Assembly (NCBI GenBank): GCA_963744285.1
Contig: CAVUTA010000018.1
Coordinates: 18,954 to 82,953, forward strand
Length of the DNA stretch: 64,000 bases
Direction: 5' to 3'
Source: an uncultured Gaiellaceae bacterium
Lineage (GTDB): Bacteria > Actinomycetota > Thermoleophilia > Gaiellales > Gaiellaceae
Shown here: positions 1,846 through 35,616 of the stretch, one piece after another
Layout of the letters: each line of letters starts with the position of its first letter
How positions within the stretch are numbered: the stretch's first letter is position 1
Position numbers and translations under genes: made by a program
Notes under the pieces: model-generated
Told to the model about the DNA's origin: nothing
Seen by the model: the letters and a program-made list of their open reading frames with translations, nothing else
Database searches by the model: none

Positions 1846-1856
1846 GCGACGCGCGC

Positions 1857-2939
1857 ATGACGGAGACGGCCGAGACTGCTGCCGCGCCGACGCAGCACCG
1901 AATCGACTACACGAGCCCTCCGGTCATTCGTGCCGACGGGGTGTGGAAGGTCTTCGGGCAGAACCCCGATCGCCTCGTCGGATCGCCGGACGCACTCCTC
2001 CCTCGGGGCGAGCTTCGCGACAAGACCGGCTGCGTCGTCGCGGTGCGGGACGTCTCGATCGAGGTGTGGCCGGGCGAGGTGTTCGTCGTCATGGGTCTCT
2101 CGGGCTCCGGCAAGTCGACGCTCGTCCGCACGCTCATCCGGCTCATCGAACCGACGGCGGGACAGATCGAGATCGCGGGCCATGACGTGTGCGCGGCAGG
2201 AGCTGCAGAGCTCCGCCAGCTTCGCCGGAATGAGGTGTCCATGGTGTTCCAGCACTTCGGGCTGCTCGCCCACCGCCGCGTGATCGACAACGTCGCGTTC
2301 GGCTTGGAGGTCAAGGGCATGGCGAAGGCGGAGCGCCTTGCCCGAGCGGCCGAGGTCCTGAAGCTCGTCGGCCTCGAGGACGCGGCCAACCAGTTCCCGG
2401 ATCAGCTCTCGGGCGGGATGCAGCAGCGAGTGGGCGTCGCGCGCGCGTTCGCCGGCAACCCGCAGGTGATGCTCTACGACGAGCCGTTCAGCGCGCTCGA
2501 CCCGCTCATCCGCCGCGACATGCAGGACGAGGTCTGTCGTCTCCAGGAGGAGACGGGCACGACGATGGTCTTCATCACGCACGATCTCTCCGAGGCGCTC
2601 AGGCTCGGCGACCGCATCGCGATCATGCGCAACGGAGGGATCGTGCAGCTCGGAACGCCGGAGGAGATCGTGGGCGCTCCCGCCGACGACTACGTGGAGA
2701 ACTTCGTCCGAGACGTCCCGCGCAGCCATGTCCTGACGCTGCGCTGGGTGATGCGGGAGCCCGAGCCGGGCGAGTCGACCGACGGGCCGTATCTCGACGT
2801 CACGACCACAGTGCGAAACGCGATCCCCGTCGTCGCGCAGAGCGAGAAGCCGGTCTGCGCGGTCGAGAACGGCCGAGTCGTCGGAGTGGTCGACCGCGTC
2901 GCCGTGCTCACGGCGATCGCGGGCGAGGGGAGTGGTTGA
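1857..2939 (+). CDS. proV: Glycine betaine/proline betaine ABC transporter ATP-binding protein (ProV/OpuAA type)
   Basis: Intact 360-aa ORF. Walker [10 protein letters not shown], signature LSGGMQQRV, Walker [12 protein letters not shown], and a C-terminal CBS-like regulatory tail typical of ProV. Confidence 0.9.
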
Positions 2940-4969
2940 TGTCGGTCGTCGCCGAGGTCGTCGCGCCGAGCACCCCCGTCCTCTCGCACGTGCCGTGGTG
3001 GCGAGGGAAGATCGTCCAGACCGCGGGAATCATCGCCCTGATGTATCTCGCGTACCGGGCGTGGGGCGTGACCGTCGATGCGAGCGGTCAGGAGACGATC
3101 CGGTTCCCGTGGCCCGATTCGCTGATCTGGCACCCGCTCTCCGGCCACCTCGACACCTTCCAGGTGTGGCTCCTCACCGAGAAAGGCGAGGCCGACAGAA
3201 GCTTCGTCTTCGCGCTCTTCGATGGCTTCTCGACGTCGATCGACCACTTCGTCGACTGGTTCAACCGGTTGCTTCTCTGGATGACCTGGATCGGGACGAC
3301 GGTCGCCGGTGTGCTCGTGGTCGCACGGTTCGGCGGCCTCCGCGCCGCGCTGATCATGCTCGTCGCATTCGCGACGTTCGCGCTCACGGGCCTGTGGGAG
3401 GAGAGCATGCAGACGGTCGCGCTGATGCTCGTCGCCGTGGGGCTCTCGCTCCTCATCGGCATCCCGCTCGGCATCGCCGCCGGCCGCTCCGATCGCTTCG
3501 CGAAGGCCATCACGCCCGTCCTCGACGCCATGCAGATCGTTCCCGCGTTCGCGTACCTGATCCCGGTCGTCATCCTCTTCTCGATCGGGCCGGCCGCGGC
3601 GGTGGTCTCGACGTTGATCTACGCGATTCCGCCGGCCATCCGGATCACGGCTCTCGGTATTCGCGGAGTGGCCGTCAACACGGTCGAGGCGGCGACCTCG
3701 CTGGGCGCGACGCGGTCGCAGCTGCTTCGCAAGGTCCAGCTTCCGCTCGCTCGTCGGCTGATCCTCCTCGGGGTCAACCAGACGATCCTGTTCGCGCTCT
3801 CGATGGTCGTGATCGCGGGCCTCATCGGTGGAGGCGGGCTCGGCGCAGTCGTGACGAGCGGTCTCTACTCCAACCCCGCGCTCGCCATCCTCGCCGGCTT
3901 CGTGATCGTGATCCTGGCGACCGCGCTCGACCGCTCGACCGAGGCGATGGCGGCGCGGACGGACCCTGCACACCGCCACCTCGACGAGTCGAGGAGGAAG
4001 CGACTGCGCCTCCAGTCGCTTGCGACCTTGGCCGCGATTCTCGGTGCGATCGGGATCTCGAAGGCGTTCGGCGCCAACGCCATCTACCCCGACGAGGTCG
4101 GAGATCCACCACGCAGCGCGACCATCGAGGAGTGGCTGCTGTCGAAGATCCAGGTCGTCCTCGACTACGTGCAGGACCCCACGACGTGGGTGTTCGCCGT
4201 CACCGAGCGGATCGGGATCTTCATCCTCCAACAGCTCCTGCTGCCGATGCAGGCATTCCTCGTCGAGGCTCCGTGGTTCACGACGCTCGGAGGGCTGACG
4301 CTGATCGCTTTCGTCGTCAGCGGGCTCCGACCGGCACTGACTGCGCTCGCGATGCTCGGCCTGATCGGAGTCATGGGTGTCTGGGCACTGGCCATGGACA
4401 CCCTTTCGCAGGTGCTCGTCGCGACGGCCATGGCCGTCGTGCTCGGTGTCGTGCTCGGCGTGCTCGCCGCCGAGAACGACCGCTTCTCCAAGACGATGAG
4501 GCCGGTGAACGACGTCCTGCAGACGCTGCCGCAGCTCGTCTACATCATCCCGTTCATCTACCTCATGCCGGTCTCGATCGTCCCGGGAATCGTCGCGGGC
4601 GTCCTCTATGCGTTCCCCGTGACGCTCCGACTGGTGGAGCGCGGTGTGCGCGACGTCGCGCCGGCGTCGGTCGAGGCCGCGAGCGCGTTCGGCGCCTCGC
4701 GCCGCCAGGTGTTGACGAAGGTCAAGCTGCCGCTCGCCGGTGACGCCGTGATGCTCGGCGTGAACCAGGCGATCGTCATGGTGCTCGCCGTCGTGGTCAT
4801 CGGCGGGCTCGTCGGGTCGGGAGGGCTCGGATACGAGGTCGCGCAAGGCCTCGTTCGCGGGCAGTTCGGGCAGGGTGTGATCGCGTCGATTGCGATCCTC
4901 GCCCTCGGCATCGCACTCGATCGCGTCACGCAGGGATCGAGAGGCTCGAGAAGGCAGGGCATCGCGTGA
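2936..4969 (+). CDS. proW: Glycine betaine ABC transporter permease, a tandem-fused double permease (ProW-ProW)
   Basis: Intact 677-aa ORF with two homologous BPD-type permease halves (...[19 protein letters not shown]...[25 protein letters not shown] and ...[19 protein letters not shown]...[25 protein letters not shown]). Its start overlaps the proV stop. Confidence 0.88.
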
Positions 4970-5004
4970 GTGCACCTCGCGCGCAAAACCAGAAGGAGGA
5001 TCGA

Positions 5005-5974
5005 ATGTCGTTTCGTGGTAGCTGGCGGCGTCGCTCCGGTGCCGTCGGCATCGCGCTCGTCGCAGTAGCCGCGCTCACCGTATCGGGGAGTGCATTCGGC
5101 GGAGCCGCGCAGAGTTGCGGCACCGTCACCATCAACGAGCAGTCGTGGTCGGGGTCGACGGCGAACACGTACGTCGCGAAGTACGTGCTCGAGAAGAACC
5201 TCGGCTGCAAGGTCAAGATCACGAACGTCACCGAGGGGACGCCGTACTTCCAGGCGATGCGGGACGGCAAGATCGACGTCGCCCTCGAGGACTGGGACAA
5301 CACGCTGGCCACGTCTGCGCAGGCCGTACATCAAGGACAAGTCGGTCCGGGTCATCGGCTCGAACGGGATCACCGGCGTCATCGGCTGGTACATCCCGCG
5401 GTACCTGCTCAAGCAGTACCCGGCGATGAAGTCGTGGAGGGGCATCAAGGGCAAGGAGACCGTGTTCAAGTCTCCCGAGTCGGGCTCGCAAGGCATGTTC
5501 CTCGGCGGCGATCCCTCGTACGTCCAGAAGGATCGTGCGCTCATCAAGGAGCTCGGCCTCAACCTGAAGCACGTCGTCGCCGGCGCCGAGCCGGCTCAGG
5601 TTGCGCGCTGGAGTCAGCTGTACAAGCAGAAGAAGCCCGTTCTCTTCTACTGGTACGACCCGCAGTACCTGAACGCGCAGTACGACCTCGTGCGAGTGAA
5701 GCTCCCGCAGCGCTTCAAAGGCTGCCTGGACGACGAGAAGCAGCCTGGAAAGCACGCGTGCGAGTACCCGTCGTACGGGCTCGACAAGCTGATCAGCGGG
5801 AAGTTCGCGACGAGCGGCTCTCCCGCACTGAAGTTCGTCAAGCGCTGGAATTGGACCTCGGCCGACCAGAACTTCGTCGCCAACCTCATCGCCGGCAAGA
5901 AGCTGAAGCCGGAGAAGGCAGCGGAGCAGTGGGTGAAGGCCAACAAGGCCAAGGTCAACGCCTGGCTGAAGTGA
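5005..5974 (+). pseudogene. proX: Glycine betaine-binding periplasmic/lipoprotein component (ProX/OpuAC type). One frame break near 5325.
   Basis: AGGAGGA RBS at 4994-5000, then ATG 5005. Signal peptide MSFRGSWRRRSGAVGIALVAVAALTVSGSAFG, then ...WSGSTANTYVAKYVLEKNLGCKVKITNVTEGTPYFQAMRDGKIDVALEDWDN. After the break (ORF 5090..5974 frame) it reads PYIKDKSVRVIGSNGITGVIGWYIPRYL...FYWYDPQYL... Confidence 0.8.
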
Positions 5975-6749: not shown

Positions 6750-9273
6750 ATGAGCACCCTCCCCAGCCATGCCCGCGCCGTCGTCATCGGGTGCGGGATC
6801 GTCGGCAACTAGCGTCGCGTACCACCTCACCGACCAGGGCTGGTCGGATGTCGTCCTGCTCGACAAGGGCCCGCTGCCGAACCCGGGCGGCTCGACCGGG
6901 CACGCCTCGAACTTCATCTACCCGGTCGACCACTCGAAGGAGATGACGCAGCTCACGCTCGAGAGCATGCGCCAGTACAAGGAGATGGGCGTGTTCACGG
7001 AGTGCGGTGGCGTCGAGGTCGCGCGCACGGAGGAGCGCATGCAGGAGCTGACCCGCCGCGTCGCGTCCGCGAAGGCCTGGGGGATCGAGCCGGTGTCGCT
7101 CGTCACGCCGGCGGAGGTGAAGGAGCTCGTCCCGTTCATCGACGAGACCGTGATCCTGGGCGGCTTCTACACGCCCGTCGGTCGGGCGTCGTCGACTCCC
7201 TGCGGGCCGGGACGATCATGCGCGAGCGCGGTCAGGAGTCGGGCAGGCTCTCGGTCTTCGCGAGCACCGAGGTGCTCGGGCTGGACGTCGAGTCCGGCCG
7301 CGTTCGGCGGGTGCGAACGACCGCCGGGGACATCGAGACGGAGGTGGTCGTGATCGCCTGCGGCGTCTGGAGCCCGAAGCTTGCGCGCATGGCCGGCGCG
7401 TCGATCCCGCTCACGCCTGCCGTGCACCAGATGATCGACATCGGCCCGACGCACTGGTTCGCCGACGCGAAGGGGGACATCGAGTTCCCGATCGTGCGCG
7501 ACATGGATACGAACATGTACGAGCGGCAGCACGGGTCGGGCCTCGAGATCGGCTCGTACGCGCACCGCGCGATCCTGTACGACCCCGAGGAGCTGCCTTC
7601 GGTCGAGGAGGCGTCGCTCTCGCCGACCGAGTTCCCGTTCACGCAGGAGGACTTCAACCTGCAGATGGAGCAGGCGCTCGAGCTGATGCCGTCGATCGTC
7701 GGCGACGAGACCGTCGGCATCAAGCACGCGATCAACGGGATCCTCTCGCTGACGCCCGACGGGATGCCCATCCTCGGCGAGCTGCCGGAGGTGAAGGGCC
7801 TCTGGTCGGCGGCGGCCGTCTGGATCAAGGAGGGACCCGGAGTCGGGAAGTCGCTCGCGGAGTGGATGGTGCACGGCGAGTCGCACATCGACCTCCACTC
7901 CTCCGACGCAGCGCGGTTCTGGGAGCACCAGAAGACGTCGACACACGTGAAGGCGCGGACGGCGGAAGGGTTCAACAAGACCTACGGAATCGTCCATCCG
8001 CTCGAGCAGTGGGCCTCGAACCGCGACGTGCGCCTCTCGCCGTACCACGAGCGGGAGCAGGAGCTCGGCGCGGTCTTCTTCGAGGCTGCCGGCTGGGAGC
8101 GGCCGCAGTGGTACGAGTCGAACGCGCCGCTGCTCGAGGAGTACGGCGACCGGGTGGGCCGCCGCGAGGCCGAGTGGGACAGCGCGCTGGTGGTCTCCGA
8201 TCATCAACGCCGAGCACCTCGCGATGCGCGACCGGGCGGGGATCTTCGACCTGTCGGCGTTCGCGATCTTCGACGTGTCGGGGCCAGGGGCGCTCGACGC
8301 TCTGCAGACGGTGTCGATGCGTCAGGTCGACGTGGCCGTCGGACGGGTCGTCTACACGCCGTGGCTCTCCGCGAGCGGTGGCTTCAAGTCCGACCTCACG
8401 ATCATGCGGCTCGGCGACGAGCACTTCCGTGTCGTCACGGGCGGCGCGCATGGCATGGCCGACCACAAGTGGCTCCGCGACCATCTCCCCGCGGACGGCT
8501 CCGCGCAGCTCGCGGACTTGACGTCCGCGTGGTCGACGATCGGCCTGTGGGGGCCGCGCGCGCGCGACATCCTCGCGTCCACGACGAGCGACGACGTCTC
8601 GAACGAGGGCTTCCCCTTCGCGACCTGCACGACGATCGAGATCGGGTCGGTACAGGTGCTCGCGTCGCGGATCTCGTACGTGGGCGACCTCGGCTGGGAG
8701 CTGTACGTCCCGATCGAGCAGGGCGCCCGCCTGTGGGACATCCTCTGGGAGGCCGGACGCGCGCACGCTGCGGTGCCCTGCGGAATCGGCGTCTACGGGA
8801 CGACCGGTCGGCTCGAGAAGTGCTACCGCGCCTACGGAGCCGAGCTCGAGAGCGAGTACACGGTCGTCGAGGCGGACATGGCCTGGGGCAAGGTCAAGGA
8901 GCAGGACTTCGTCGGCAAGGAGGCGCACGTCTCGCATCGCGGCGAGGCGCCGGCCGCGATCCTCTGCACGCTCACGGTCGACGACCATGCGTCGTCCTCG
9001 GGAGTCGCGCGCTTCCCGATGGGGCGCGAGCCGATCCTCACGCGTGCCGGCGCGCCGATCGTCGACGCGAAGGGTCGTCGCTCCTACGTGACGAGCGCCG
9101 GCGCGGCGCCCTCGGTGGGGAAGCACGTGCTCATGGCGTATCTCCCGCCGGAGCAGGCGCAGGTCGGCACTCGGCTCGCCGTCGAGTACATGGGCGAGCA
9201 GTACCCCGTGACCGTCGACGTCGCCGGCTCGGCCCCGATCTTCGACCCGGAGAACTCGAGAATCCGGTCGTGA
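6750..9273 (+). pseudogene. Dimethylglycine (or sarcosine) dehydrogenase/oxidase: FAD-dependent oxidoreductase fused to a GcvT-like folate-binding domain. 3 frame breaks.
   Basis: MSTLPSHARAVVIGCGIVGN (GxGxxG), then break at 6810 (an inserted T creates a TAG). SVAYHLTDQGWSDVVLLDKG...GGFYTP, then break ~7175. ...VVIACGVWSPKLARMAG...WDS, then break ~8185. WWSPIINAEHLAMRDRAGIFDLSAFAIFDVSGPGA...ISYVGDLGWELYVP...PIFDPENSRIRS*. Architecture and length (~840 aa) match DMGO/DMGDH. Confidence 0.85.
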
Positions 9274-10034
9274 GGATCCTCGTCTGCGTCAAGCGGGTGC
9301 CGATGACGGGCGGGAAGATCGTCCTCACCGAGGACGCGCAGGCGATCGAGACGAAGCACCTCGGCTTCACGATCAGCCCGCACGAGGAGTGCGGCGTCGA
9401 GGAGGCCGTCCGGCTGATCGAGGCGCACGGCGGCGAGTCGGTCGTCCTCACGCTCGGGCCGTCCGAGGCCGAGGAGCAGCTCCGCGACGCGATGGCGCTC
9501 GGCGCGGACCGCGCCATCCATCTGATCTCCGACGGCGAAGAGTGGGATCCGCAGGCGACCGCCGGCGCGATCGTCGAGGCGATCCGGGCCGACGAGGCGG
9601 CCAACGGTGCGTTCGACCTCGTGTTCTTCGGCAACGAGTCGGCGGACTCGGGTGGCTTCCAGGTCGGGATCCGGGTGGCGTATGCACTCGGCCGGCCCGT
9701 GGCGACCGGGCCTCAAGGGCGTCGCCGTGGAGGGCGAGACCGTCCGCTGCGAGCAGGAGGTCGCCGGCGGCCGCGACGTGTACGTGCTCCCGCTCCCGGC
9801 GGTGGTCACCGTGCTCGAGGGCCTGAACCTGCCGCGCTATCCGTCGGTGCCTGCGAAGCTCCGCGCGCAGCGCAAGCCGGTCGACTCGAGCTCCCCTGCG
9901 AGGCCCGACCCGAGGCTCGAGAAGCTCCGGCTCGTCGTGCCCGAGAGCCAGGGCAAGGAGGCCGAGATCCTCGGCCACGGGCCGGACGCAGCGCCCGCCG
10001 TCGTGGAGGTGCTCCGCCAGATCGGGGTCGCCTG

Positions 10035-10035
<1 letters not shown>
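9270..10035 (+). pseudogene. etfB: Electron transfer flavoprotein beta subunit. One frame break near 9705.
   Basis: VRILVCVKRVPMTGGKIVLTEDAQAIETKHLGFTISPHEECGVEEAVRL...LVFFGNESADSGGFQVGIRVAYALGRPVAT, then the break, then GLKGVAVEGETVRCEQEVAGGRDVYVLPLPAVVTVLEGLNLPRYPS... The GTG start overlaps the upstream stop (GTGA). Confidence 0.88.
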
Positions 10036-15338
<5,303 letters not shown>

Positions 15339-15357
15339 CTTCCAGGATCTCCTAGAA

Positions 15358-15391
15358 TTCCACGATACAGCATCGTTCCACGATACGGAAC
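15358..15391. promoter_or_regulatory. Candidate IclR operator/promoter elements: direct repeat TTCCACGATAC x2 (15358-15368, 15376-15386) and inverted repeat GTTCC-N7-GGAAC (15375-15391)
   Basis: Read directly in the 59-bp divergent gap between iclR (start 15338) and the corrinoid-protein gene (ATG 15398). Confidence 0.45.
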
Positions 15392-15397
15392 ACCATC

Positions 15398-16096
15398 ATG
15401 GCTGACGACGACCTCGATCTGAAGACCTTGGGAGACGACGAGCTCGTCGCGCAGATGCACGACGACCTCTACGACGGGCTCGCGGACGAGATCGTCGAGG
15501 GTACGAACATCCTGCTCGAGCGGGGTTGGGGTGCGGACAAGGTGCTGAACGACGCGCTCGTCGAGGGCATGCGGATCGTCGGCATCGACTTCCGCGACGG
15601 GATCCTGTTCGTGCCCGAGGTGCTGCTCGCGGCGAACTCGATGAAAGCCGGGATGGCGATACTCCGGCCGCTCCTGGCCGAGACGGGGGCCGAGCGCGTC
15701 GGCAAGGTCGTGATCGGCACCGTCAAGGGCGACATCCACGACATCGGCAAGAACCTCGTCGCGATGATGCTCGAGGGCGCCGGCTTCGAGGTCTACGACC
15801 TCGGCATCAACAACCCGGTCGAGAACTACCTCGCCGCGCTCGAGGAGCACGAGCCGGACATCCTCGGCATGTCGGCGCTCCTCACGACGACGATGCCGTA
15901 CATGAAGGTCGTCATCGAGACCCTGAAGGAGAAAGGCATCCGGGACGACTACATCGTCCTCGTCGGCGGCGCACCGCTGAACGAGGACTTCGGCAAGGCG
16001 ATCGGCGCGGACGCGTATTGTCGCGATGCGGCCGTGGCCGCCGAGACCGCCCAGGCCCTCGTCCTGGCTCGCCGTGCAGCAGCTACTGCATCCTGA
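15398..16096 (+). CDS. Cobalamin-binding corrinoid protein (methyltransferase cognate corrinoid protein, MtgC/MttC-like)
   Basis: Intact 232-aa ORF. N-terminal B12-binding cap helix bundle plus a Rossmann domain with the DxHxxG motif (GTVKGDIHDIGKNLV) and ...LGMSALLTTTM... Confidence 0.9.
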   Translation: MADDDLDLKTLGDDELVAQMHDDLYDGLADEIVEGTNILLERGWGADKVLNDALVEGMRIVGIDFRDGILFVPEVLLAANSMKAGMAILRPLLAETGAERVGKVVIGTVKGDIHDIGKNLVAMMLEGAGFEVYDLGINNPVENYLAALEEHEPDILGMSALLTTTMPYMKVVIETLKEKGIRDDYIVLVGGAPLNEDFGKAIGADAYCRDAAVAAETAQALVLARRAAATAS

Positions 16097-16725
16097 CGAG
16101 GAGCGCGTCTTCGAGGCCGAGCGGCCCGAGGTGCTCGTCCTCGCCTGCGGCGCGCTCGCGCGCGAGGTGCTCGCAGTCGTCCGGCTCAACGGCTGGCAGA
16201 ACGTGACCGTCCGCTGCCTCCCCGCGCAGCTCCACTCCCGGCCGCAGCTGATCGCGCCCGCCGTGGACGCGAAGTTGAAGGAGCTCGCGGGTAGCTACGA
16301 GCGAGTGTTCGTCGCGTACGCGGACTGCGGCACCGGCGGCGAGCTCGACAAGGTGCTCGACCTGCACGGAGTCGAGCGGCTGCCCGGCGCGCACTGCTAC
16401 GGCTTCCTCACCGGCAACGACGCCTGGCAGGAGCTGCACGACGCCGAGCCCGCGACCTTCTACCTGACGGACTTCCTCGCGCGGCACTTCGACGCGCTCG
16501 TGATCCGCGGTCTCGGGCTCGACCGCCATCCCGGAGCTTCTGCCCGATTACTTCGGGAACTACCGTCGGCTTCTGTATCTGGCACAGACCGACGACGACG
16601 ACCTGCGGGCCCGCGCACGCGCAGCCGCCGAGCGCCTCGGGCTCGCGTACGAGGAGCGTCGCACCGGCTACGGCGACCTCGTTCCGTCGCTGACCCGCTT
16701 CGTGGAGGCGACCCCGGTTGCCTGA
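16074..16725 (+). pseudogene. DUF1638-family protein (function unknown; recurrent partner of MttB/corrinoid systems). One frame break near 16530.
   Basis: EVLVLACGALAREVLAVV...VFVAYADCGTGGELDKVLDLHGVERLPGAHCYGFL...FYLTDFLARHFDALVIRGLGLDRHP, then the break, then ELLPDYFGNYRRLLYLAQTDD... The start (GTG 16074 or ATG 16026) overlaps the corrinoid gene end. Family assignment is from memory of the conserved pattern. Confidence 0.6.
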
Positions 16726-17014
16726 GCTGACCGTGATCTGGTGGCGGGACATTCCCGCGCAGGTGGTGGCGAAGGAAGGGCGCTCGTCGGCTCGCGCCGA
16801 GCTCTCCGGCCGCTTCCAGGAGGCGATCGACGCCGCGGCGATGCGTGCGGGTCTGATCGGGACGGATGCCTACCTCGAAGAGTGGCGCCGCGAGCCACGC
16901 GCGTGCGGCGACGACCTCGAGTCCGAGGTCGCCGAGGAGGTCGCGTGGCTCGAGGGCGCATACGGTGACGACGTCCTCGAGCGGCTCGTCGCCTCGAACG
17001 GACGCGACTCGTGA
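16718..17014 (+). CDS. Small conserved hypothetical protein (98 aa), translationally coupled between DUF1638 and the methyl-THF methyltransferase
   Basis: Intact ORF: LPELTVIWWRDIPAQVVAKEGRSSARAELSGRFQEAIDAAAMRAGLIGTDAYLEEWRRE... It overlaps both neighbours by a few nt. No motif I can assign. Confidence 0.55.
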   Translation: MPELTVIWWRDIPAQVVAKEGRSSARAELSGRFQEAIDAAAMRAGLIGTDAYLEEWRREPRACGDDLESEVAEEVAWLEGAYGDDVLERLVASNGRDS

Positions 17015-17919
17015 CCGAGACGCTCCTCTCGAGCGCCACGAAGGAAGTCGTGATCGGCTTCGAGCGACCGTTCGTGATCATCGGCGAGCGCATCAACCCG
17101 ACTGGGCGGAAGAAGCTGGCAGAGGAGATGGCGGCCGGGAACTTCGACACCGTCATCGCAGACGCCATCCGACAGGTGGAGGCGGGAGCGCAGATGCTCG
17201 ACGTCAACGCCGGGATTCCCCTCGCGGACGAGCCGGCGATCCTCGCCGAGGCGATCCAGCTCGTTCAGAGCGTGACGGACGTTCCGCTCTGCATCGACTC
17301 GTCGATCGTCGCGGCGCTCGAGTCCGGGCTCGCCGTCTACCAGGGCAAGGCGCTCGTCAACTCGGTGACGGGCGAGGAGGATCGGCTCGAGTCCGTGCTC
17401 CCACTCGTGGCGAAGCACGGGGCCGCAGTCGTCGCGATCACGAACGACGAGTCGGGGATCTCCGAGGACCCGGACGAGCGCTTCGAGGTCGCGCGCAGGA
17501 TCGTGTCCCGCGCCGCCGACCACGGGATCCCCAAGGAGGACATCGTCGTCGACCCGCTCGTCATGCCGATCGGCGCGATCGGCAGCGCCGGGCGCCAGGT
17601 GTTCCGGATCGTTCGGCGTCTGCGCGAGGAGCTCGGCGTGAACACGACCTGCGGCGCGTCGAACGTGAGCTTCGGCCTTCCCGCCCGGCCCGCGCTGAAT
17701 GCGGCGTTCCTCCCGATGGCGATCGCGTCCGGCCTCACCTCGGCCATCACGAGCCCGCTCCACGCGGAGATGCTGCAAGCCGTGAAGGCGGCCGACGTGC
17801 TGATGGGGAACGACGCGCACTGCGCGAACTGGATCGCCCGGAACGGGGACTCGCCGGGCGGCGAAGTCACGCGCGGCCGGCGCGGTGGCCGCGAGGGTCG
17901 CCGGAGAGCTGCGTCGTGA
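17011..17919 (+). CDS. Methyltetrahydrofolate:corrinoid methyltransferase (pterin-binding domain; MtgA/AcsE/MtrH-like)
   Basis: Intact 302-aa ORF. IIGERINPTGRKKLAEEM..., QMLDVNAG and NSVTGE are typical of the pterin-binding (DHPS-like) methyltransferase barrel. Confidence 0.88.
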   Translation: MTETLLSSATKEVVIGFERPFVIIGERINPTGRKKLAEEMAAGNFDTVIADAIRQVEAGAQMLDVNAGIPLADEPAILAEAIQLVQSVTDVPLCIDSSIVAALESGLAVYQGKALVNSVTGEEDRLESVLPLVAKHGAAVVAITNDESGISEDPDERFEVARRIVSRAADHGIPKEDIVVDPLVMPIGAIGSAGRQVFRIVRRLREELGVNTTCGASNVSFGLPARPALNAAFLPMAIASGLTSAITSPLHAEMLQAVKAADVLMGNDAHCANWIARNGDSPGGEVTRGRRGGREGRRRAAS

Positions 17920-19918
17920 CGGCGCCCGACGCACTCGTCGTCTTCACGCCGTCCGGCAGGCGAGGACGGTTCGAGCACGGCACGACCGTGCTCGAGGCAG
18001 CCAGGAGACTCGGTGTCGACCTCGACTCGGTCTGCGGCGGCCGCGGCATCTGCGGCCGTTGCCAGATCGAGGTCTCCGAGGGCGAGCACGCGAAGCACGG
18101 GATCGTGTCGGCCGCCTCGCACCTGACGCCGGCCGCCGAGGTCGAGGCGCGATACGCGGCCGACCGCGGGCTCGCCGACGGCCGCCGCCTCGGCTGCACC
18201 GCCTGCGTGGCCGGCGACCTCGTCATCGACGTGCCGCCCGAGAGCCAGCTCTACCGCCAGGTCGTGCGCAAGGAGGCGGATGCACACCCGATCGAGATCG
18301 ACCCGGTCGTGCGCCTCTACTACGTCGAGGTCGCAGGTGCCGAGCTCGGGGTCGCCGCAGGTGACCTGCGACGCGTGCGAGACGCGCTCGCGGCGGAGTG
18401 GGAGCTCGACGACCTCGACGCCGACCCGGCTGTCCTCCCCGAGCTGCAGCGCGCGCTGCTCGAAGGACTCCGGCGCGATCACCGTCGCGGTGCACGACGG
18501 CTCGACGATCACGGCTGCGTGGCCCGGGCTGCACGACCGTGCATTCGGCATCGCATTCGACATCGGCTCGACGACCGTCGCAGGTCATCTGTGCGACCTG
18601 CTCACCGGCGAGGTGCTCGCTTCCGCCGGCGAGATGAACCCCCAGATCCGCTTCGGCGAGGACCTGATGAGCCGCGTCTCCTACGTCATGCTCAACCCCG
18701 GCTCGGAGAAGGAGCTGACGAGGGTCGTTCGTGGCTGCCTCGCAAAGCTCACCGCCGAGCTCGCGACCGCAGCCGAGATCGACCGCACGGACATCCTCGA
18801 GGTGACGCTCGTCGGGAACCCGATCATGCACCACCTCCTGCTCGGGATCGATCCGACGCCGCTCGGCGGCGCACCCTTCGCGCTCACGATCGACGAGGCC
18901 GTCCGACTCCCGGCTCGCGACCTCGGCCTGCCCGTACACCGCGGCGCGCGGGCGTACGTGCTGCCCTGCATCGCGGGGCACGTCGGCGCCGACTCGGCCG
19001 GCGTCATCCTCTCCGAGGGCCCGTACCTCGGTGAGCGAGGTGAACCTCATCGTCGACGTCGGGACCAACGCGGAGATCGTCCTCGGCAACCGCGACCGGC
19101 TGCTCGCCGCCTCGAGCCCCACCGGGCCTGCGTTCGAGGGCGCGCAGATCTCGTGCGGCCAGCGTGCCGCTCCGGGTGCGATCGAGCGCGTCCGCATCGA
19201 TCCCGAGACGCTCGAGCCGCGCATCCGCGTGATCGGGTGCGACGCGTGGTCGGACGAGCCCGGGTTCGCCGGCACGCAGGTCACGGGCGTCTGTGGCTCG
19301 GGGATCATCGAGGCGATCGCGGAGCTCCATCTCGCCGGCGTGCTCACGACCGACGGGACGATCGACGGCGCGCTCGCGAACCGCTCGCAGCGCATCGTCG
19401 CCGACGGGCGCACCTTCTCCTATGTTCTCTGGGCGGGCGAGCCCGAGCTGGTCATCACGCAGAACGACGTGCGGCAGATCCAGCTGGCCAAGGCGGCCCT
19501 CTACGCGGGTTGCGCACTGTTGATGGAGCGGTACGGGATCGAGACGGTCGATCGCATCCGGCTCGCGGGAGCGTTCGGGACGCACATCGACCCCGTTCAC
19601 GCGCTCGTGCTCGGGCTCGTTCCCGACTGCGACCCCGACCAGGTCACCGCCGCGGGCAACGCCGCGGGCACAGGTGCTCGGATCGCGCTCCTCAACCGGG
19701 GAGCGCGAGCCGAGATCGAGGACGTCGTGCGTCGCGTCGAGAAGGTGGAGACCGCCGTCGAGCCGCGCTTCCAGGAGTTCTTCGTGAAGGCGATGGCGAT
19801 CCCGCACGACGTCGATCCGTACGCGCGGCTCGCGCGCAAGGTCCGCCTTCCCGGCCGCCGGATCGCATCGAACGAGAGGCCGACGCGAGGGCGTCGCCGA
19901 GAGAGGAAGCCCGTATGA
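17916..19918 (+). pseudogene. Corrinoid reductive activase: N-terminal 2Fe-2S ferredoxin plus ASKHA (DUF4445) ATPase, RamA/RACo-like. 2 frame breaks.
   Basis: CGGRGICGRCQ...LGCTACV (plant-type 2Fe-2S). Then FGIAFDIGSTTVAGHL, VTLVGNPIMHHLLLGI, LIVDVGTNAEIVLG, SPTGPAFEGAQISCG and GVCGSGIIEAIAEL. Breaks ~18470 and ~19030. GTGA overlap with the upstream gene. Confidence 0.85.
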
Positions 19919-21453
19919 GCGAGACGCGAGGAAGACGAGCCGGCGGGCGCGCCGCCCGCCAGGCCGCACGGCTCGGCGCCGTGATCGAGAGCGTGCCGTT
20001 CCTGACCCGAACGCTGGCGCCGCTCGAGGTCGTTTCCGAAGAGGGACTCGCGCTGCTGGAGGAGAACGCGGACACGATCCTCGAGCAGGTCGGGATCGAC
20101 TTCCGCGACGCGCCCGATGCGATCGAGCTCTTCCAGGACGCAGGCGCCCACGTCGACGGCGAGCGCGTGCGCTTCCCGCGGGGCATGTGCCGTCAGCTCG
20201 TCCAGGCGACGGCGCCACGCCAGTTCACGCAGGTCGCACGAAACCCGGAGCGCAGCGTCGTCTTCGGCGGGCAGAACACGATCTTCGCGCCCGCGTACGG
20301 GTCGCCGTTCGTGCGCGACCTCGACGACGGGCGGCGCTACGGGACGATCGAGGACTTCCGGAACTTCGTGAAGCTCGCGTACGTCTCGCCCTGGCTCCAC
20401 CACTCCGGCGGAACGGTCTGCGAGCCCGTCGACCTCCCGGTGAACAAGCGCCACTACGACATGGTCGAGGCGCATCTGCGGCTCTCGGACAAGCCGTTCA
20501 TGGGCTCGGTCACCCACCCTCAGCGGGCGCGCGACACGGTCGACATGGCGCGGATCGTCTTCGGCGAGGAGTTCGTCGAGCAGAACACGGTGGTCTTCAG
20601 CCTCATCAACGCGAACTCGCCGCTCGTCTGGGACGCGACGATGCTCGGGGCCGCGCGCGCGTACGCCGAGGCGAACCAGGCGGTGATGATGACCCCGTTC
20701 ATCCTCGCCGGTGCGATGAGCCCCGCGACCGTCGCGGCAACGTGCGCGCAGACGCTCGCCGAGTCGCTTGCGGGAATGACCTACGTCCAGCTCGTCCGGC
20801 CCGGCGCGCCGGTGGTGCTCGGATCGTTCGCGAGCTCGATGTCGATGCAGTCGGGCGCGCCGACCTTCGGCACGCCGGAGCCGGCGCTCGTCCTCTACGT
20901 GATGGCGTCGCTCGCGCGCCGGCTCGGCGTTCCCTTCCGGTCAGGCGGCGCGCTCACCGCGTCGAAGATCCCGGACGCGCAGGCGGCGTACGAGTCGGCG
21001 AACACCATGCAGCCGACCATCCTCGGCGGCACGAACTTCGTCCTGCACGCGGCCGGCTGGCTCGAGGGCGGGCTCGCGATGGGCTACGAGAAGTTCGTCC
21101 TCGACGCCGATCAGCTCGGCATGTGGCACGCGTTCTGCAAGGGCGTCGACCTCTCGGAGAACGGGCAGGCGCTCGACGCCTTCCTCACGAACGAGCCGGG
21201 AACGCACTTCCTCGGGCACGCACACACGCTCGCCAACTTCGAGACCGCGTTCTACCGCTCGCCGCTCGCGGACAGCTCGAGCTTCGAGCAGTGGGAGTCC
21301 GAGGGTGCACAGGATGCCGCGAAGCGCGCGAACGCGATGTGGAAGCGTGCTCTCGCGGAGTACGAGCAGCCGCCGCTCGACGACGCCGTCGGCGCCGAGC
21401 TCGGCGAGTGGATCGAGCGCAGGAAGGCGTCGTTCCCGGACTCGGACGTATGA
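19915..21453 (+). CDS. MttB-superfamily (trimethylamine methyltransferase family) non-pyrrolysine methyltransferase. Candidate glycine betaine (or other quaternary amine):corrinoid methyltransferase.
   Basis: Intact 512-aa ORF with no in-frame TAG. Arg-rich N-terminus (RGRRAGGRAARQAARL), then conserved MttB-family blocks (...VFGGQNTIFAPAYGSPFV.D...SGGTVCEPVD...NANSPLVWD...MTPFILAGAMSPAT...). ATGA overlap with the activase. Confidence 0.85.
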   Translation: MSETRGRRAGGRAARQAARLGAVIESVPFLTRTLAPLEVVSEEGLALLEENADTILEQVGIDFRDAPDAIELFQDAGAHVDGERVRFPRGMCRQLVQATAPRQFTQVARNPERSVVFGGQNTIFAPAYGSPFVRDLDDGRRYGTIEDFRNFVKLAYVSPWLHHSGGTVCEPVDLPVNKRHYDMVEAHLRLSDKPFMGSVTHPQRARDTVDMARIVFGEEFVEQNTVVFSLINANSPLVWDATMLGAARAYAEANQAVMMTPFILAGAMSPATVAATCAQTLAESLAGMTYVQLVRPGAPVVLGSFASSMSMQSGAPTFGTPEPALVLYVMASLARRLGVPFRSGGALTASKIPDAQAAYESANTMQPTILGGTNFVLHAAGWLEGGLAMGYEKFVLDADQLGMWHAFCKGVDLSENGQALDAFLTNEPGTHFLGHAHTLANFETAFYRSPLADSSSFEQWESEGAQDAAKRANAMWKRALAEYEQPPLDDAVGAELGEWIERRKASFPDSDV

Positions 21454-22305
21454 GCGATTCGGTCGCCGAGAATCGTGTGGCCGAGCTGCTCGCCTCGCCT
21501 CGCTACGAGGTGCTTCCGTTCGGGAGCGTGGAGGAGGCCGTCCTCGAGCACGTCCCGCTCGACGTCACCCTCACCGTCACCGTCTCACCGAGGAAGGGCA
21601 TCGAGCACACGCTCGACCTCGCGGAGCGATTGACGAAGCACGGCTACTCCGTCGTCCCCCATCTCTCGGCTCGGCTCGTGCGCGACCGCGTGCATCTCGC
21701 GGAGATCATCCACCGGGTCGACGAGATCGACGCGCACGACGTGTTCGTCGTGGCGGGGGACGCGGACGAGCCGGCAGGCGAGTACGCCGGCGCAGCTTCG
21801 CTCCTGGAGTCGATCGCCGAGCTCGGGCACCGCTTCGAGAACGTCGGGATCACGGGCTACCCCGAGAGCCACCCGCTCATCGACGACGAGACCACCATTC
21901 AGGCGATGTTCGACAAGGCCCGTTTCGCCACGTACATCGTCAGCCAGATCTGCTTCGACCCGCGCGTCACTCTCGGACTGGGTCGAGCGCGTCTGGGAGC
22001 GCGGGACGCGCCTGCCGATCTTCGTCGGCATTCCGGGCGCCGTCCCGAGAACCAAGCTCCTGCGCGTTTCGTCGTCGGTCGGGCTCGGGGCGTCGATGCG
22101 CTTCCTGCGGCGCCATCGGAGCTGGGTGAGCCATGCGGTCAGGCCGGGAGGCTTCAGTCCGGATCCGCTCATCGAGGGGCTCGCACCCGGGCTCATCGAC
22201 CCGGAGCGCAAGATCGCCGGCTTCCACGTCTTCACGTTCAACGACCTGGCCGACACCGAGCACTGGCGGCAGCATCGCCTCGCCGTTGCTGCCGGCGCCC
22301 GCTAG
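21450..22305 (+). pseudogene. metF: Methylenetetrahydrofolate reductase (MetF family). One frame break near 21970.
   Basis: ...YEVLPFGSVEEAV...VTVSPRKGIEHTLDLAERL...VVPHLSAR...NVGITGYPESHPLIDDETTIQAMFDKARFATYIVSQICFDP, then the break, then ...LPIFVGIPGAVPRTKLLRVS...FHVFTFN. ATGA overlap with the MttB gene. Confidence 0.8.
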
Positions 22306-23752
22306 ATGCAGGACTACTCGATGGTCGTCGGAGGTGCGTGGGCCGAGTCCGAGTCGGGCGAGCGCATGGAGGCAACGAGTCCGGCAACCGGACGAGTCGC
22401 TCGGAACGGTCCCCGAGGGGACGCGAGAGGATGCCCGACGCGCGATCGCCGCAGCGAACGCCGCGCGGCGCGACTGGGCGGCGCTGTCAGCCTTCGAGCG
22501 GGCCGCCGCGATGAACCGCGTCGCCGATCTCGTCGAGGAACGGCGTGACGACCTCGCGCTGACGCTCACGCTCGACCAGGGCAAGCCGCTGCACGCCGAG
22601 GCCTACGGCGAGGTGGAGGAGCTCGTCGTCTACTGGCGGATGGCCGCGGCGGATGCGACCCGTCTCGCCGGATCCATGCCGCCCTCCGTCGACGCGACGA
22701 AGCGGATCCTCGCGTACCGAGTCCCGCGAGGTGTCGTCGGCGTGATCACGCCCTGGAACTGGCCCTACACGATGCCCGCCGAGCTCATCGCTCCTGCACT
22801 CGCCGCCGGGAACGCCGTGGTCTGGGTGCCGGCGCCCTCGACGACGGTCTGCGCCGTGAAGCTCGCCGAATGCATCGTCGATGCCGAGCTTCCTGCCGGA
22901 GTGTTCTCGATGGTCACCGGCCCTGGCCCGTAGTCGGAGACGAGGTCGCCTCGAACTCCGGGGTTCACGGAGTCGGATTCATCGGCTCCGTCGCGACCGG
23001 GCTCCAGGTCGCAGCGCGAGCCGCCGGCAAGACGACCCTGCTCGAGCTCGGCGGAAACGGCCCCATGGTCGTGCTCGACGACGCCGACGTCGAGGCCGCC
23101 GCTCGAGGCGAGCATCGCGGCGTCGTTCCTGTGCGCCGGACAGAGCTGTACGGCCGGCGAGCTCTTCCTCGTGCACGACGCCGTCTACGACGAGTTCGTC
23201 GAGCGGCTTCGCACAGTGGTCGAGAGCTCGGTGCGGCTGGGCGACCCGCTCTCGGAGGAGACGACGATGGGACCGCTCAACAACGAGCCGACGGCGGCGA
23301 AGATGGATCGCCACGTTCGAGACGCGCTCGAGCGCGGCGCACAGCTCGTGGCCGGCGGCGCGCGTGCGGCGGGCTACCCGACCGACCTCTACTGGGAGCC
23401 CACGGTGCTCGCAGGCGTGACCGGCGAGATGGAGGTCGCACGCGAGGAGACCTTCGGCCCCGTGGTTCCGATCGTCCGCATCTCGAGCGACGAGGAGGCG
23501 CTCGAGATCGCCAACGCCTCGCCATACGGCCTGCTCACTGCTGTCTGGACGCGCGACCTCGCCCGCGGCCTGCGCTTCGCAGAGGCGGTCGACGCAGGCT
23601 GGGTGAACATCAACGAGTCGACCAACTACTGGGAGAGCCACCTGCCGTTCGGCGGGCGAGCAGGCTCGAGCTCGGGGGTCGGACGGGTCGGCGGGAGCTC
23701 CGTGCTCGAGGCGTTCACGGAGCCGAAGACCGTCGTCTTGAATCTCGACTGA
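22306..23752 (+). pseudogene. NAD(P)+-dependent aldehyde dehydrogenase (candidate betaine-aldehyde dehydrogenase by context). 3 frame breaks.
   Basis: The pieces carry VITPWNWPYTM, ELGGNGP, CAGQSCTAGE (catalytic Cys) and EETFGPVVPI. Breaks ~22395, ~22930, ~23110. It starts one base after the metF stop. Confidence 0.82.
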
Positions 23753-32197: not shown

Positions 32198-33135
32198 TTG
32201 CCACGCGTCCTCTGCGACTCGTCGTTCCCGCCGGACCGCGTTCGTGAGGCCCTCGCGCTCCCGGACGTCGTCGTCGAGGTGGCCGCGCCTCCGTGGGCCG
32301 GCGACGACGTGGTCGCGCTCGTGTCGTTCGAGCCCGTCTCGGCCGAGGAGCTCGAGCAGCTGCCGGCACTGCGCGTCGTCGCGACACCGAGCGTGGGGTT
32401 CGACCACATCGACGTCGCTGCCGCGACGGCGCAGGGCGTGTGGGTCTGCAACGTCCCGGACTACTGCGTCGAAGAGATGGCCGACCACGCACTCGCACTC
32501 CTCCTCGCGCTCGTGCGCGGCATCGTCGCGCTCGACCGCAGCGTCGCGGCGGGTCGTCTGGGACTACGCGGCAGCAGGTGCGCTGCAGCGGGTGTCGGAC
32601 GTACGGGTCGGCGTGATCGGGTTCGGACGGATCGGCAGAGCGTTCGCGACGCGCGCACTGGCACTCGGGATGGAGGTGTCCGCGCACGATCCGCTCCTCG
32701 CGGACGACGAGATCGCCGCCACGGGCGTCCGGCCCCTGCGTCTCGATGAGCTGCTCGCGAGCTCGACCGCGGTCTCCCTCCACGCCCCGCTGACTGCCGA
32801 GACCCGAGGGCTGATCGGCGCAGCGCGAGCTCGCGCAGCTCCCCGAAGGAGCCTTCGTGGTCAACGTCGCGCGCGCGCCGCTCCTCGACGTGCGAGCGGC
32901 TCTCGAAGCGCTCGGGTCGGGGCACCTCGGCGGTCTCGCGCTCGACGTGCTCGACGTCGAGCCGCCGACGTCGGCCGCGAAGGCGCCTTCCTCGTCTCGG
33001 CTCATCGTCACGCCGCACGCCGGCTGGTACAGCGAGCACGCGGAGGAGATCGTGTTCGAGCGTACCGTGGAGTCGGTCCGAGACGTACTCGCCGGGCGGA
33101 CGCCGCGGGGCGCAGTCAATTCTCCTGTGCGATAG
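32198..33135 (+). pseudogene. D-isomer-specific 2-hydroxyacid dehydrogenase family protein. 2 frame breaks (~32560, ~32825).
   Basis: ...VVATPSVGFDHIDVAAATAQGVWVCNVPDYCVEEMADHALALLLAL..., VGVIGFGRIGRAFATRALALGMEV (NAD GxGxxG), FVVNVARAPLLD, and LALDVLDVEP...TPHAGW. Confidence 0.8.
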
Positions 33136-33146
33136 CGTCGCTCGCG

Positions 33147-34676
33147 ATGCGCGAACGGCCGCACATCCTCGTGCTGATGGTCGATCAGCTCGCCGCCCCG
33201 TTCCTCCGCACCTACGGACATCAGGTCACGAAGACACCGACGATCGACCGACTCGCCGAGACGGGCGTCGTCTTCGAGAACGCGTACACGCCCAGTCCGC
33301 TCTGCGCACCGGCACGCGCGTCGCTCATGACGGGAATGCTTCCGAGTCGCACGGGCGTCTACGACAACTCGGCCGAGTTCGCCTCGTCGATCCCGACGTT
33401 CGCGCACTATTTGCGACTCGAGGGATACCGGACCTGCCTCAGCGGCAAGATGCACTTCGTCGGGCCGGATCAGCTACACGGGTTCGAGGAGCGGCTCACC
33501 ACCGACGTCTATCCGGGCGACTTCGGCTGGACGCCCGATTGGAGCCGCCCGGGCGAGCGGATCGACTGGTGGTACCACAACATGAGCTCGGTCAAGGAGG
33601 CAGGCGTGGCCGAGATCACGAACCAGCTCGAGTACGACGACGAGGTCGCGTTCCACGCCGTCCGTCGCCTCTACGACTACGCACGCTTCGAAGGGGACGC
33701 TCCGCTCATGCTGTGCGTCTCCTTCACACACCCGCACGACCCGTACGTGGCGAGGCAGCGGTACTGGGACCTGTACGCAGACGACGACGTCGACCTGCCG
33801 GCGGCGCCCGGGTTGCCGTACGCGGAGCGCGACCCGCATGGCCGAAGACTCTTCGATGACCTCGCGATGGGCGACGTCGACATCACGGAGGCGGACGTGC
33901 GCGCCTCGCGCCACGGCTACTACGCGAGCCTGTCGTACGTCGACGAGCGGATCGGCGACGTGCTGGACGCCTTCCAGGCGTGCGGGCTGGCGGAGGACTC
34001 GATCGTGATCTTCGCGTCCGATCACGGAGACTTCCTCGGCGAGCACGGGCTCTTCTACAAGATGTCCTTCCTCGAGCACGCCTCACACGTCCCGCTGATC
34101 GTGCACGCGCCGGAGCGGTTCGAAGCCCGGAGGGTGCCAGAGCCCGTGTCTCTCCTGGACGTGACGCCGACTCTGGCGGATCTGGCTCGCCCGGGTTCCT
34201 CCGACGAGCTCTCGGCGCCGGTGGACGGACGCAGCCTGCTGCCGTTGCTGGCCGGGGGCGCCGAGCCTGACCGAACCGTGGCTGCTGAGTACCTGGCGGA
34301 GAGCGCGCTCGCGCCGATGGTCATGCTTCGTCGTGGGCGTTGGAAGTTCATCCACACCCCGAGCGATCCGGACCTGCTCTTCGATCTCGAGAACGATCCG
34401 CTCGAGCTCGTAAACCTCGCCGAAGCGCCGGACCAGGCCGGCCTCGTGCGGGAGCTCCGGGAGGAGGCAGGCGAGCGGTGGGATCTCGACGCGGTCGAGC
34501 GGGACGTCCGTGCGAGCCAGCAAGCGCGGCTCGCCGTCTTTCGAGCGCTGCAGCAGGGAGTGACATATCCGTGGGATTTCCAGCCCTCGCGAGCCGCAGC
34601 CAGGCAGTACACCCGGAACACCATGGACGTCGCCCTTCGCGACCGGCAGTCCCGTTTTCCCGCGCAACCCTCGTGA
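33147..34676 (+). CDS. betC: Choline-sulfatase
   Basis: Intact within the 30960..34676 frame (509 aa). Sulfatase signature SPLCAPARASLMTG (C-x-P-x-R), plus GKMHFVGPDQLHGFEERL, FTHPHDPY, YYASLSYVDERIG and ASDHGDFLGEHGLFYKM, which is the choline-sulfatase subfamily pattern. Confidence 0.88.
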   Translation: MRERPHILVLMVDQLAAPFLRTYGHQVTKTPTIDRLAETGVVFENAYTPSPLCAPARASLMTGMLPSRTGVYDNSAEFASSIPTFAHYLRLEGYRTCLSGKMHFVGPDQLHGFEERLTTDVYPGDFGWTPDWSRPGERIDWWYHNMSSVKEAGVAEITNQLEYDDEVAFHAVRRLYDYARFEGDAPLMLCVSFTHPHDPYVARQRYWDLYADDDVDLPAAPGLPYAERDPHGRRLFDDLAMGDVDITEADVRASRHGYYASLSYVDERIGDVLDAFQACGLAEDSIVIFASDHGDFLGEHGLFYKMSFLEHASHVPLIVHAPERFEARRVPEPVSLLDVTPTLADLARPGSSDELSAPVDGRSLLPLLAGGAEPDRTVAAEYLAESALAPMVMLRRGRWKFIHTPSDPDLLFDLENDPLELVNLAEAPDQAGLVRELREEAGERWDLDAVERDVRASQQARLAVFRALQQGVTYPWDFQPSRAAARQYTRNTMDVALRDRQSRFPAQPS

Positions 34677-34692
34677 GAGCGGCAGACTGCCG

Positions 34693-35586: not shown

Positions 35587-35616
35587 AGCAGTCAGCGGTC
35601 GCGAAGCGCCGCCTTG

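Follow-up and report, generated by a model that had tools for sequence, protein, structure and literature searches.

The seven-gene operon

Glycine betaine (GB) is a major osmolyte and a source of nitrogen and carbon, in soil and ocean alike. We analyzed a 64-kb stretch of a contig from an uncultured Gaiellaceae bacterium (hereafter, the window), which carries at 15398-22305, on the forward strand, seven consecutive genes predicted to make up a corrinoid-dependent methyl transfer system: an MtgC-type corrinoid protein, a DUF1638 protein, a 98-aa protein of family PF13769, a pterin-binding methyltransferase of the MtgD/MtgA type, a reductive activase, an MtgB-type member of the MttB family, and a divergent methylenetetrahydrofolate reductase (MTHFR, or MetF). 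Because the G+C content of the window is ~70%, open reading frames (ORFs) alone are an unreliable guide to its genes; coding regions were therefore called from the phase of third-position G+C content (GC3), from stop-to-stop translations, and from two frame-aware Viterbi segmentations, and by these the + strand is continuously coding from 15398 to ~23750. Pfam matches on the pieced frames agree with the genes, order, strand, and coordinates of the original prediction, which had been made from the sequence without database searches. The genes were also said to overlap, and they do so at GTGA junctions at 17011 and 17916 and ATGA junctions at 19915 and 21450. The start codon of an aldehyde dehydrogenase (ALDH) gene directly follows the metF stop (TAG-ATG at 22303-22308), so that the transcription unit probably comprises eight genes, with ALDH as the last one; an ALDH gene is found downstream of metF also in the related loci L001, L002, L003, and L007.

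The individual proteins fit such a system. The corrinoid protein is stand-alone, combines domains PF02607 and PF02310, carries the His-on motif GDIHDIG (DxHxxG), and is 90% identical to its counterpart in Gaiella occulta; its best NCBIfam model is the glycine betaine-specific MtgC, with a score below the cutoff. The DUF1638 gene starts at ATG 16026 or GTG 16074. The pterin-binding methyltransferase, ~61% identical to a Paracoccus protein, passes the cutoff of NCBIfam model NF005719 (363 bits, cutoff 259), and the activase shows the succession Fer2, RACo_linker, Raco_middle, and RACo_C_ter (Pfam, joined protein). Apart from a generic methyl-tetrahydrofolate:corrinoid methyltransferase domain model, NCBIfam gives no equivalog-level assignment for the seven proteins.

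A system of this kind has been described in aerobes. Ruegeria pomeroyi requires MtgC and MtgD for growth on and consumption of GB (Mausz et al., PNAS 2025, PMC12478193), and two PF06253 proteins (MtgB), a RamA-like activase, a DUF1638 protein, and MetF2 are induced in this species on betaine, choline, and carnitine; Mtg genes are co-located in Sinorhizobium meliloti and other aerobes (PMC12478193). A RamA-like protein and DUF1638 have also been linked to B12 reactivation in aerobically grown Phaeobacter inhibens (Price et al. 2018, PMC5764234). The departure from an anaerobic paradigm that the original prediction had seen here, and the question it had raised about a Co(I) cycle in an aerobe, are thus already dealt with in these two papers; the central idea of aerobic corrinoid-dependent GB demethylation was published in 2025, and our find is largely explained by it. 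In the S. meliloti locus, a trimethylamine-methyltransferase-family gene lies beside cobalamin-binding, DUF1638, "virulence factor," MTHFR, methyl-tetrahydrofolate:cobalamin methyltransferase, and ASKHA genes; bmt and a gene for a betaine ABC ATPase are close by. Six of the seven window proteins align with proteins of this locus, at identities of 80% (MtgC), 63% (MtgB), 62% (MtgD), 57% (activase), 52% (PF13769), and 51% (DUF1638). We consider it very likely that this region encodes the form which the aerobic cobalamin-dependent GB demethylase (MtgBCD and helper proteins) takes in Gaiellaceae, and that the frame breaks described below are assembly errors. The earlier proposal that the first demethylation of GB passes through a corrinoid and tetrahydrofolate (H4F) is supported by the orthology to the S. 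meliloti Mtg locus, by a leucine at the pyrrolysine position of the MttB homologue (see below), by the intact operon of G. occulta, and by the failure to find Bhmt or Rieske candidates in the window. What the compared loci show directly is which genes are present, their orthology and synteny, the residues of the pocket, and what kind of indels break the frames.

The nearest genomic relatives of the locus are metagenome-assembled genomes (MAGs) of Gaiellaceae, in which the MttB protein is 92% identical. G. occulta has the same seven-gene operon and the same Etf, Fe-S, IclR, and GMC neighbors, with the IclR gene directly upstream and the Etf/Fe-S trio also on that side. More widely, a comparison of 81 loci from Actinomycetota, Chloroflexota, Acidobacteriota, and Gammaproteobacteria shows a conserved cassette beside MttB, made up of corrinoid protein, DUF1638, PF13769, pterin-binding protein, and activase. 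A subset of Actinomycetes MAGs (L012, L016, L021, L023, L026, L033, and L034) has a second layout, where PF13769 comes directly after the corrinoid protein, DUF1638 is not detected, and an OpuAC and/or dimethylglycine dehydrogenase gene lies immediately upstream. The genus Gaiella has been described as strictly aerobic (Albuquerque 2011, cited in PMC5557794); genes of the window that bear, indirectly, on an aerobic host are the ETF/Fe-S genes, the GMC oxidoreductase, and a PuuD-type urate oxidase. A literature search returned no paper linking Gaiella to this pathway, and the sole mention of Actinomycetota in Mausz et al. is that ~5% of marine mtgC reads belong to this phylum (PMC12478193).

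Upstream of the operon, and divergent from it, lies a gene for an IclR-family regulator. The region between iclR and mtgC contains an 11-bp perfect direct repeat, TTCCACGATAC, at 15359-15369 and 15377-15387, which overlaps a GTTCC-N7-GGAAC palindrome. The motif is kept in the loci with a divergent iclR (L001, L002, L003, L005, and L007), and the repeat and palindrome plausibly form the IclR operator. Scanning the whole window with Rfam found no cobalamin riboswitch or other RNA, and a tRNA scan found none; a scan of 14400-24000 for sigma-70 promoters and intrinsic terminators was likewise empty, being uninformative at 70% GC.

The respiratory and betaine-related context claimed for the module is borne out by domain matches in the window (Table 1): a GMC oxidoreductase, a dimethylglycine dehydrogenase, EtfAB, a membrane Fe-S protein, GB uptake, and putative GB-producing routes. 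EtfB, EtfA, and the Fe-S/CCG protein would form an ETF-to-quinone route, and the genes at 33121..37101 are candidates for routes feeding GB. A GntR regulator is also among the neighborhood genes. Within the 64-kb window there is no homologue of S. meliloti bmt/MtgE and no Rieske pattern. This bears on another possible role of the module, that it is mainly a split cobalamin-dependent methionine synthase as in P. inhibens (MtgC, MtgD, activase, and DUF1638, with MtgE encoded elsewhere), the MttB homologue being accessory. Indeed, both MtgC and MtgD serve two functions in R. pomeroyi (PMC12478193). However, neither the window nor the flanks of the related loci hold a homocysteine-binding MtgE/Bhmt homologue, MttB and MTHFR are translationally coupled within the operon, and the operon is embedded among genes of GB uptake and catabolism. 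We thus regard methionine synthesis as a highly improbable main function, although a secondary role of this kind is possible.

Table 1. Genes and features of the operon and of its neighborhood in the window
Feature	Coordinates	Strand	Basis
MtgC-type corrinoid protein, 232 aa, intact	15398..16096	+	B12-binding 99 bits; B12-binding_2
DUF1638 protein, frame-broken	16026..16725	+	PF07796 97 bits on joined protein
PF13769 ("Virulence_fact") protein, 98 aa, intact	16718..17014	+	Pfam E = 1.4e-20
MtgD/MtgA-type methyl-H4F:corrinoid methyltransferase, 302 aa, intact	17011..17919	+	Pterin_bind (PF00809) 108 bits
RACo/RamA-like reductive activase ([2Fe-2S] and ASKHA ATPase), frame-broken	17916..19918	+	Domains on joined protein
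MtgB-type non-pyrrolysine MttB-family methyltransferase, 512 aa, intact	19915..21453	+	PF06253 758 bits
Divergent MTHFR (MetF2-like role), frame-broken	21450..22305	+	PF02219 34 bits
Aldehyde dehydrogenase (BetB-like), several frame breaks	22306..23752	+	Aldedh 474 bits
Intergenic region, putative operator	15339..15397	.	Sequence repeat and palindrome
IclR-family regulator, divergent from operon	14535..15338	-	HTH_IclR and IclR_C; ORF
GMC oxidoreductase (choline dehydrogenase-like), ~8 frame pieces	12935..14582	+	GMC_oxred_N/C
EtfB, EtfA, membrane Fe-S/CCG oxidoreductase	9256..12930	+	ETF, ETF_alpha, Fer4, CCG
Dimethylglycine/sarcosine dehydrogenase-type enzyme, frame breaks	6750..9255	+	DAO-FAO_M-GCV_T-GCV_T_C
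OpuA-type GB ABC transporter (ATPase; fused permease-permease-OpuAC)	1841..5974	+	ABC_tran, BPD_transp_1 x2, OpuAC 147 bits
Choline sulfatase, BKACE, 3-hydroxyacyl-CoA-DH/thioesterase (carnitine dehydrogenase-like)	33121..37101	+	Sulfatase and Choline_sulf_C; BKACE 318 bits; 3HCDH_N, 3HCDH, and 4HBT_2

Other parts of the window hold genes of different kinds. At 23951-25530, an MFS transporter appears to be fused to, or lies close beside, a C-terminal S-adenosylmethionine-dependent methyltransferase domain (Methyltransf_25/11), which may be two genes given the indels. At 39467-42353 (- strand), a proline-racemase-family protein is encoded beside two enoyl-CoA hydratase/isomerase genes and a small protein, a set that may serve the breakdown of hydroxyproline or of compounds of the proline-betaine type. 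A purine catabolism island (45315-60552) takes up the right-hand third of the window, with subunits of a xanthine-dehydrogenase-type molybdoenzyme, a BMP-family nucleoside ABC transporter, adenine deaminase, an amidohydrolase, HIU hydrolase, OHCU decarboxylase, a PuuD-type membrane urate oxidase (Urate_ox_N) followed by a CxxCH motif, DUF3830, and an M20 amidohydrolase.

Frame breaks across the window

Three of the seven operon genes are not single ORFs: DUF1638 is spread over two frames, the activase over three, and MetF over two, and their frame pieces were joined by hand before the Pfam matches were made. Nucleotide alignment of the window with three related loci located four uncompensated +1 insertions, at ~16530 (DUF1638), ~18470 and ~19035 (activase), and ~21974 (MetF). 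The original prediction had overlooked these breaks and described the module as complete; if they are assembly indels, as we argue here, this description is true of the inferred genes and not of the DNA as given.

Were the frameshifts real, the operon would be decaying, and DUF1638, activase, and MetF would be pseudogenes. The DNA as given indeed does not encode these proteins in one frame each, and some of the insertions fall outside long homopolymers. However, comparable breaks hit unrelated genes throughout the window, among them those for EtfB, the Fe-S protein, the GMC oxidoreductase, ALDH (frame changes near 22390, 22933, and 23102), and ABC transporters (examples outside ALDH are ~9700, 12558-13976, 26044, 26306, and 40630). 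A crude census of the window put the number of same-strand frame junctions that lack a stop codon at no more than 53, an upper bound that includes ordinary overlapping gene boundaries (four of the eight flags in the operon); by this upper-bound count, the rate of flagged junctions is similar within and outside the operon. Moreover, no stop codons follow the breaks, GC3 stays at ~0.9 in the shifted frame, and amino acid identity to G. occulta is undiminished: 75.5% before and 75.8% after the break in DUF1638, 69% and 67% in MetF, and 75%, 81%, and 84% across the three pieces of the activase.

The relatives point the same way. Related long-read "MFD" MAGs have breaks of their own, at other positions, whereas in the short-read MAGs L003, L004, and L011 each gene is in a single frame, and the isolate G. 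occulta has seven intact overlapping ORFs of 231, 231, 99, 302, 678, 513, and 285 aa. We find decay of the operon scarcely credible, and the pseudogene hypothesis was rejected in view of the spread of breaks over the window, the steady identity past them, the different breaks of other long-read MAGs, and the intact relatives. The four operon breaks are most likely assembly indels, and the window has the look of an unpolished long-read MAG assembly. Being so rich in indels, it needs frameshift-tolerant methods wherever genes are read from ORFs.

Substrate, folate branch, and the PF13769 protein

We compared the MttB homologue with solved structures and with the S. meliloti locus. The match to the MTTB profile is full-length (residues 8-508 on profile positions 1-500). 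Its ORF has no internal stop, and so no in-frame UAG, as had been noted from the sequence; the pyrrolysine Pyl334 (X334) of the MttB structure 7XCL aligns with Leu347, and leucine stands at this position also in 2QNE and 4YYC. Among solved structures, 4YYC ranks first (703 bits; 63% identity over 485 aa), followed by the GB methyltransferase of Desulfitobacterium hafniense (396 bits; 43% identity to this MtgB) and by the pyrrolysine-dependent MttB (101 bits). The MttB-family gene in the Mtg locus of S. meliloti encodes 4YYC itself (100% identity). In D. hafniense MtgB, GB is bound by Y97 and F356, through cation-pi contacts, and by R312 and H348, which hold the carboxylate (Picking et al. 2026, PMC13080624). 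Three of the four residues are kept here, as Y128, R342, and H378 (equivalent to Y97, R312, and H348), and the substrate, left open in the original prediction, is to that extent only partly so.

The MTHFR has its best PDB match in 7XG9 (117 bits) and keeps the catalytic Asp and Gln. 7XG9 is S6MTHFR of Sphingobium SYK-6, a type 4 enzyme that oxidizes methyl-H4F (CH3-H4F) (Yu et al. 2025, PMC11868366); the type 4 signature consists of Leu48-Pro49 and Arg78 (loop b2-a3), Phe215 and Cys219 (helix a8), and Pro268-Phe-Gly-Gly-Leu (loop b8-a11) (PMC11868366). The window gene is translationally coupled to mtgB, and it is this position that suggests the CH3-H4F-oxidizing direction. Proteobacterial Mtg loci carry a pair formed by a MetV-like protein and a 363-aa MTHFR, whereas the Actinomycetota-type operon has a stand-alone MTHFR of 285 aa, in what looks like a non-orthologous replacement.

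Several points weigh against reading the operon as an aerobic GB demethylase. In D. hafniense MtgB, two aromatics hold the trimethylammonium group; one of them, F356, is replaced here by Gly386, and GB specificity is therefore not proven. The MTHFR fails to qualify as type 4, as it keeps three of ~10 signature residues (the equivalents of Pro49, Phe269, and Leu272) and is substituted at the others (L48S, R78L, F215V, C219V, P268T, G270N, and G271D); nor was any similarity detected between it and the MTHFR/MetV-like pair encoded in the loci of S. meliloti and Paracoccus. The corrinoid protein scores below the cutoffs of the curated MtgC models NF047996 (206 versus 370 bits) and NF047995 (172 versus 310 bits), and the activase below those of AcsV NF040756 (363 versus 800 bits) and RamA TIGR04270 (115 versus 500 bits). 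The curated MtgC, AcsV, and RamA models are centered on proteins of anaerobes, and by these scores the two window proteins are relatives, not members, of these equivalogs. We know of no experiment on the system in any member of the Actinomycetota, and the oxygen physiology of the organism is judged by a relative in culture rather than by its own genome. Even in R. pomeroyi, the assignment of MtgB comes from proteomics and homology, and the paper mentions no mtgB mutant (PMC12478193).

The substituted aromatic calls for a closer look at the pocket. A tryptophan, W382, sits four residues before Gly386, and could make up for the lost aromatic. YRLHWG recurs in 79 of the 81 related loci, and the W/G pocket pattern occurs also in 4YYC, which makes it a mark of the "aerobic" clade at large and not a feature particular to this gene. 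It is conceivable that the same machinery acts on another quaternary amine (proline betaine, carnitine, gamma-butyrobetaine, choline, or similar), with GB handled elsewhere in the genome. The MttB superfamily includes enzymes for several quaternary amines, among which the MtgB aromatic pair is what varies (PMC13080624), and both the change of F356 to Gly386 and the presence of carnitine- and choline-related genes in the window speak for this. Nevertheless, the equivalents of Y97, R312, and H348 are kept, and the clade-invariant W382 could take the place of the aromatic face. The nearest characterized enzyme is a GB methyltransferase, and the orthologous S. meliloti locus was assigned to GB by Mausz et al. 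(PMC12478193). In addition, all feeder routes in the window converge on GB, and dimethylglycine has its own dehydrogenase in the cluster. On balance a different substrate appears unlikely to us, and GB is most likely the one used, as judged from genomic context and orthology; the conserved residues by themselves do not prove it.

With each catalytic step, the substrate, and the direction in which the MTHFR works all taken from homologues, we can outline a route for GB in this organism. GB would enter through the OpuA transporter, or would be formed locally from choline (GMC dehydrogenase and aldehyde dehydrogenase), from choline-O-sulfate (sulfatase), or from carnitine (carnitine dehydrogenase-like enzyme and BKACE). 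MtgB would then transfer a methyl group of GB to the Co(I) of MtgC, releasing dimethylglycine, and the pterin-binding methyltransferase would pass it from methyl-Co(III) to H4F. The resulting methyl-H4F would be oxidized to methylene-H4F by the MTHFR-like protein. In an aerobe, Co(I) should often become oxidized, and the activase, with ATP, would re-reduce the inactive Co(II); DUF1638, and possibly also the PF13769 protein, may help to restore Co(I). Finally, the DAO/GCV_T dehydrogenase would demethylate dimethylglycine further, and EtfAB and the membrane Fe-S/CCG protein would carry the electrons into the respiratory chain.

The 98-aa protein had been presented as unknown. It in fact belongs to a known family, PF13769. 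Its gene is placed between those of DUF1638 and the pterin-binding protein. It and the corrinoid protein occur together in 52 of 56 related loci, and the S. meliloti Mtg locus has it too. The AlphaFold2 (AF2) model is confident (pLDDT 93), and a Foldseek search with it against the PDB gave no meaningful neighbor (best E = 0.18, TM < 0.33). Its homologues show no informative domain fusion, the best 120 matches being all stand-alone proteins of 92-117 aa. As read here, the two papers on the published system, PMC12478193 among them, do not name this protein as a component. We put forward, with more doubt than confidence, that the PF13769 protein is a so far overlooked and almost obligate part of the aerobic system of corrinoid methyl transfer, where it would aid DUF1638 and the RACo-type activase in keeping or restoring Co(I) under O2, and that in Actinomycetota and Chloroflexota the system has recruited a separate lineage of MTHFR and has an altered MtgB pocket (Trp382/Gly386 for Phe356). 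If this proposal holds, the published six-part model is incomplete, and the Gaiellales, a very abundant soil lineage, would be a major uncounted B12-dependent sink for GB.

The interest of the locus lies in its hosts and in its compactness. To our knowledge, the aerobic cobalamin-dependent GB route has so far been demonstrated only in marine and rhizobial Proteobacteria. The presence of the operon in Gaiellaceae, including the cultured G. occulta, and in MAGs of Chloroflexota and Acidobacteriota extends the route to abundant soil lineages, and implies a B12 requirement for betaine turnover in them. The operon also provides a clean list of parts, in which the PF13769 protein and the different MTHFR could refine the published model.

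Comparison with known systems

The closest likeness is to the aerobic Mtg system of R. pomeroyi and S. meliloti, which shares with the window a PF06253 MtgB, a B12-binding MtgC, a pterin-binding MtgD, a Fer2/ASKHA activase, DUF1638, and an MTHFR, as well as the tie to GB uptake, choline and carnitine conversion, and dimethylglycine oxidation. The PF13769 gene, too, is common to the window and the S. meliloti locus. The host differs, however, being a soil Gaiellaceae of the Actinomycetota, whereas the published hosts are Proteobacteria. The parts that are scattered in R. pomeroyi are joined here in one overlapping operon, no MtgE is found nearby, and the MTHFR is a stand-alone protein unrelated in sequence to the proteobacterial pair of MTHFR and MetV-like protein.

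The anaerobic system of D. hafniense, in which MtgB, MtgC, and MtgA transfer methyl groups from GB to H4F (2QNE/9YCE; PMC13080624), shares the three-component chemistry, the leucine at the pyrrolysine position, and three of the four ligands of GB, with the methyltransferase identity given above. It differs in the aromatic pair, where the window enzyme has Gly for F356 and a clade-invariant Trp four residues earlier, and in the corrinoid protein, which in the window falls below the MtgC cutoffs. The window host, moreover, is probably aerobic, and the genomic context is respiratory.

The split methionine synthase of P. inhibens (PMC5764234) resembles the operon in having a corrinoid protein beside DUF1638, a separate pterin-binding protein, and an activase with Fer2 and DUF4445 (RACo_C_ter) domains. 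Its homocysteine-binding subunit is absent from the window, and the window operon adds an MttB-family enzyme and an MTHFR. The pyrrolysine-dependent MttB/MttC/RamA system of Methanosarcina (7XCL) is more distant: it has the superfamily fold and the corrinoid-protein logic in common with the window, but the MttB score is low, the window enzyme uses neither UAG nor pyrrolysine, and the predicted acceptor pathway leads to H4F, not to coenzyme M. Also, unlike RamA, the window activase has an N-terminal [2Fe-2S] domain, as in the RACo type, and scores far below the RamA cutoff. Finally, the type 4 MTHFR of SYK-6 (7XG9) is the best structure match of the window MTHFR and has the same Asp and Gln, and the window gene occupies a position downstream of a demethylase predicted to produce methyl-H4F; by the published signature (PMC11868366), however, the window protein is not a member of type 4, and it may represent another MTHFR lineage recruited to the same pathway.

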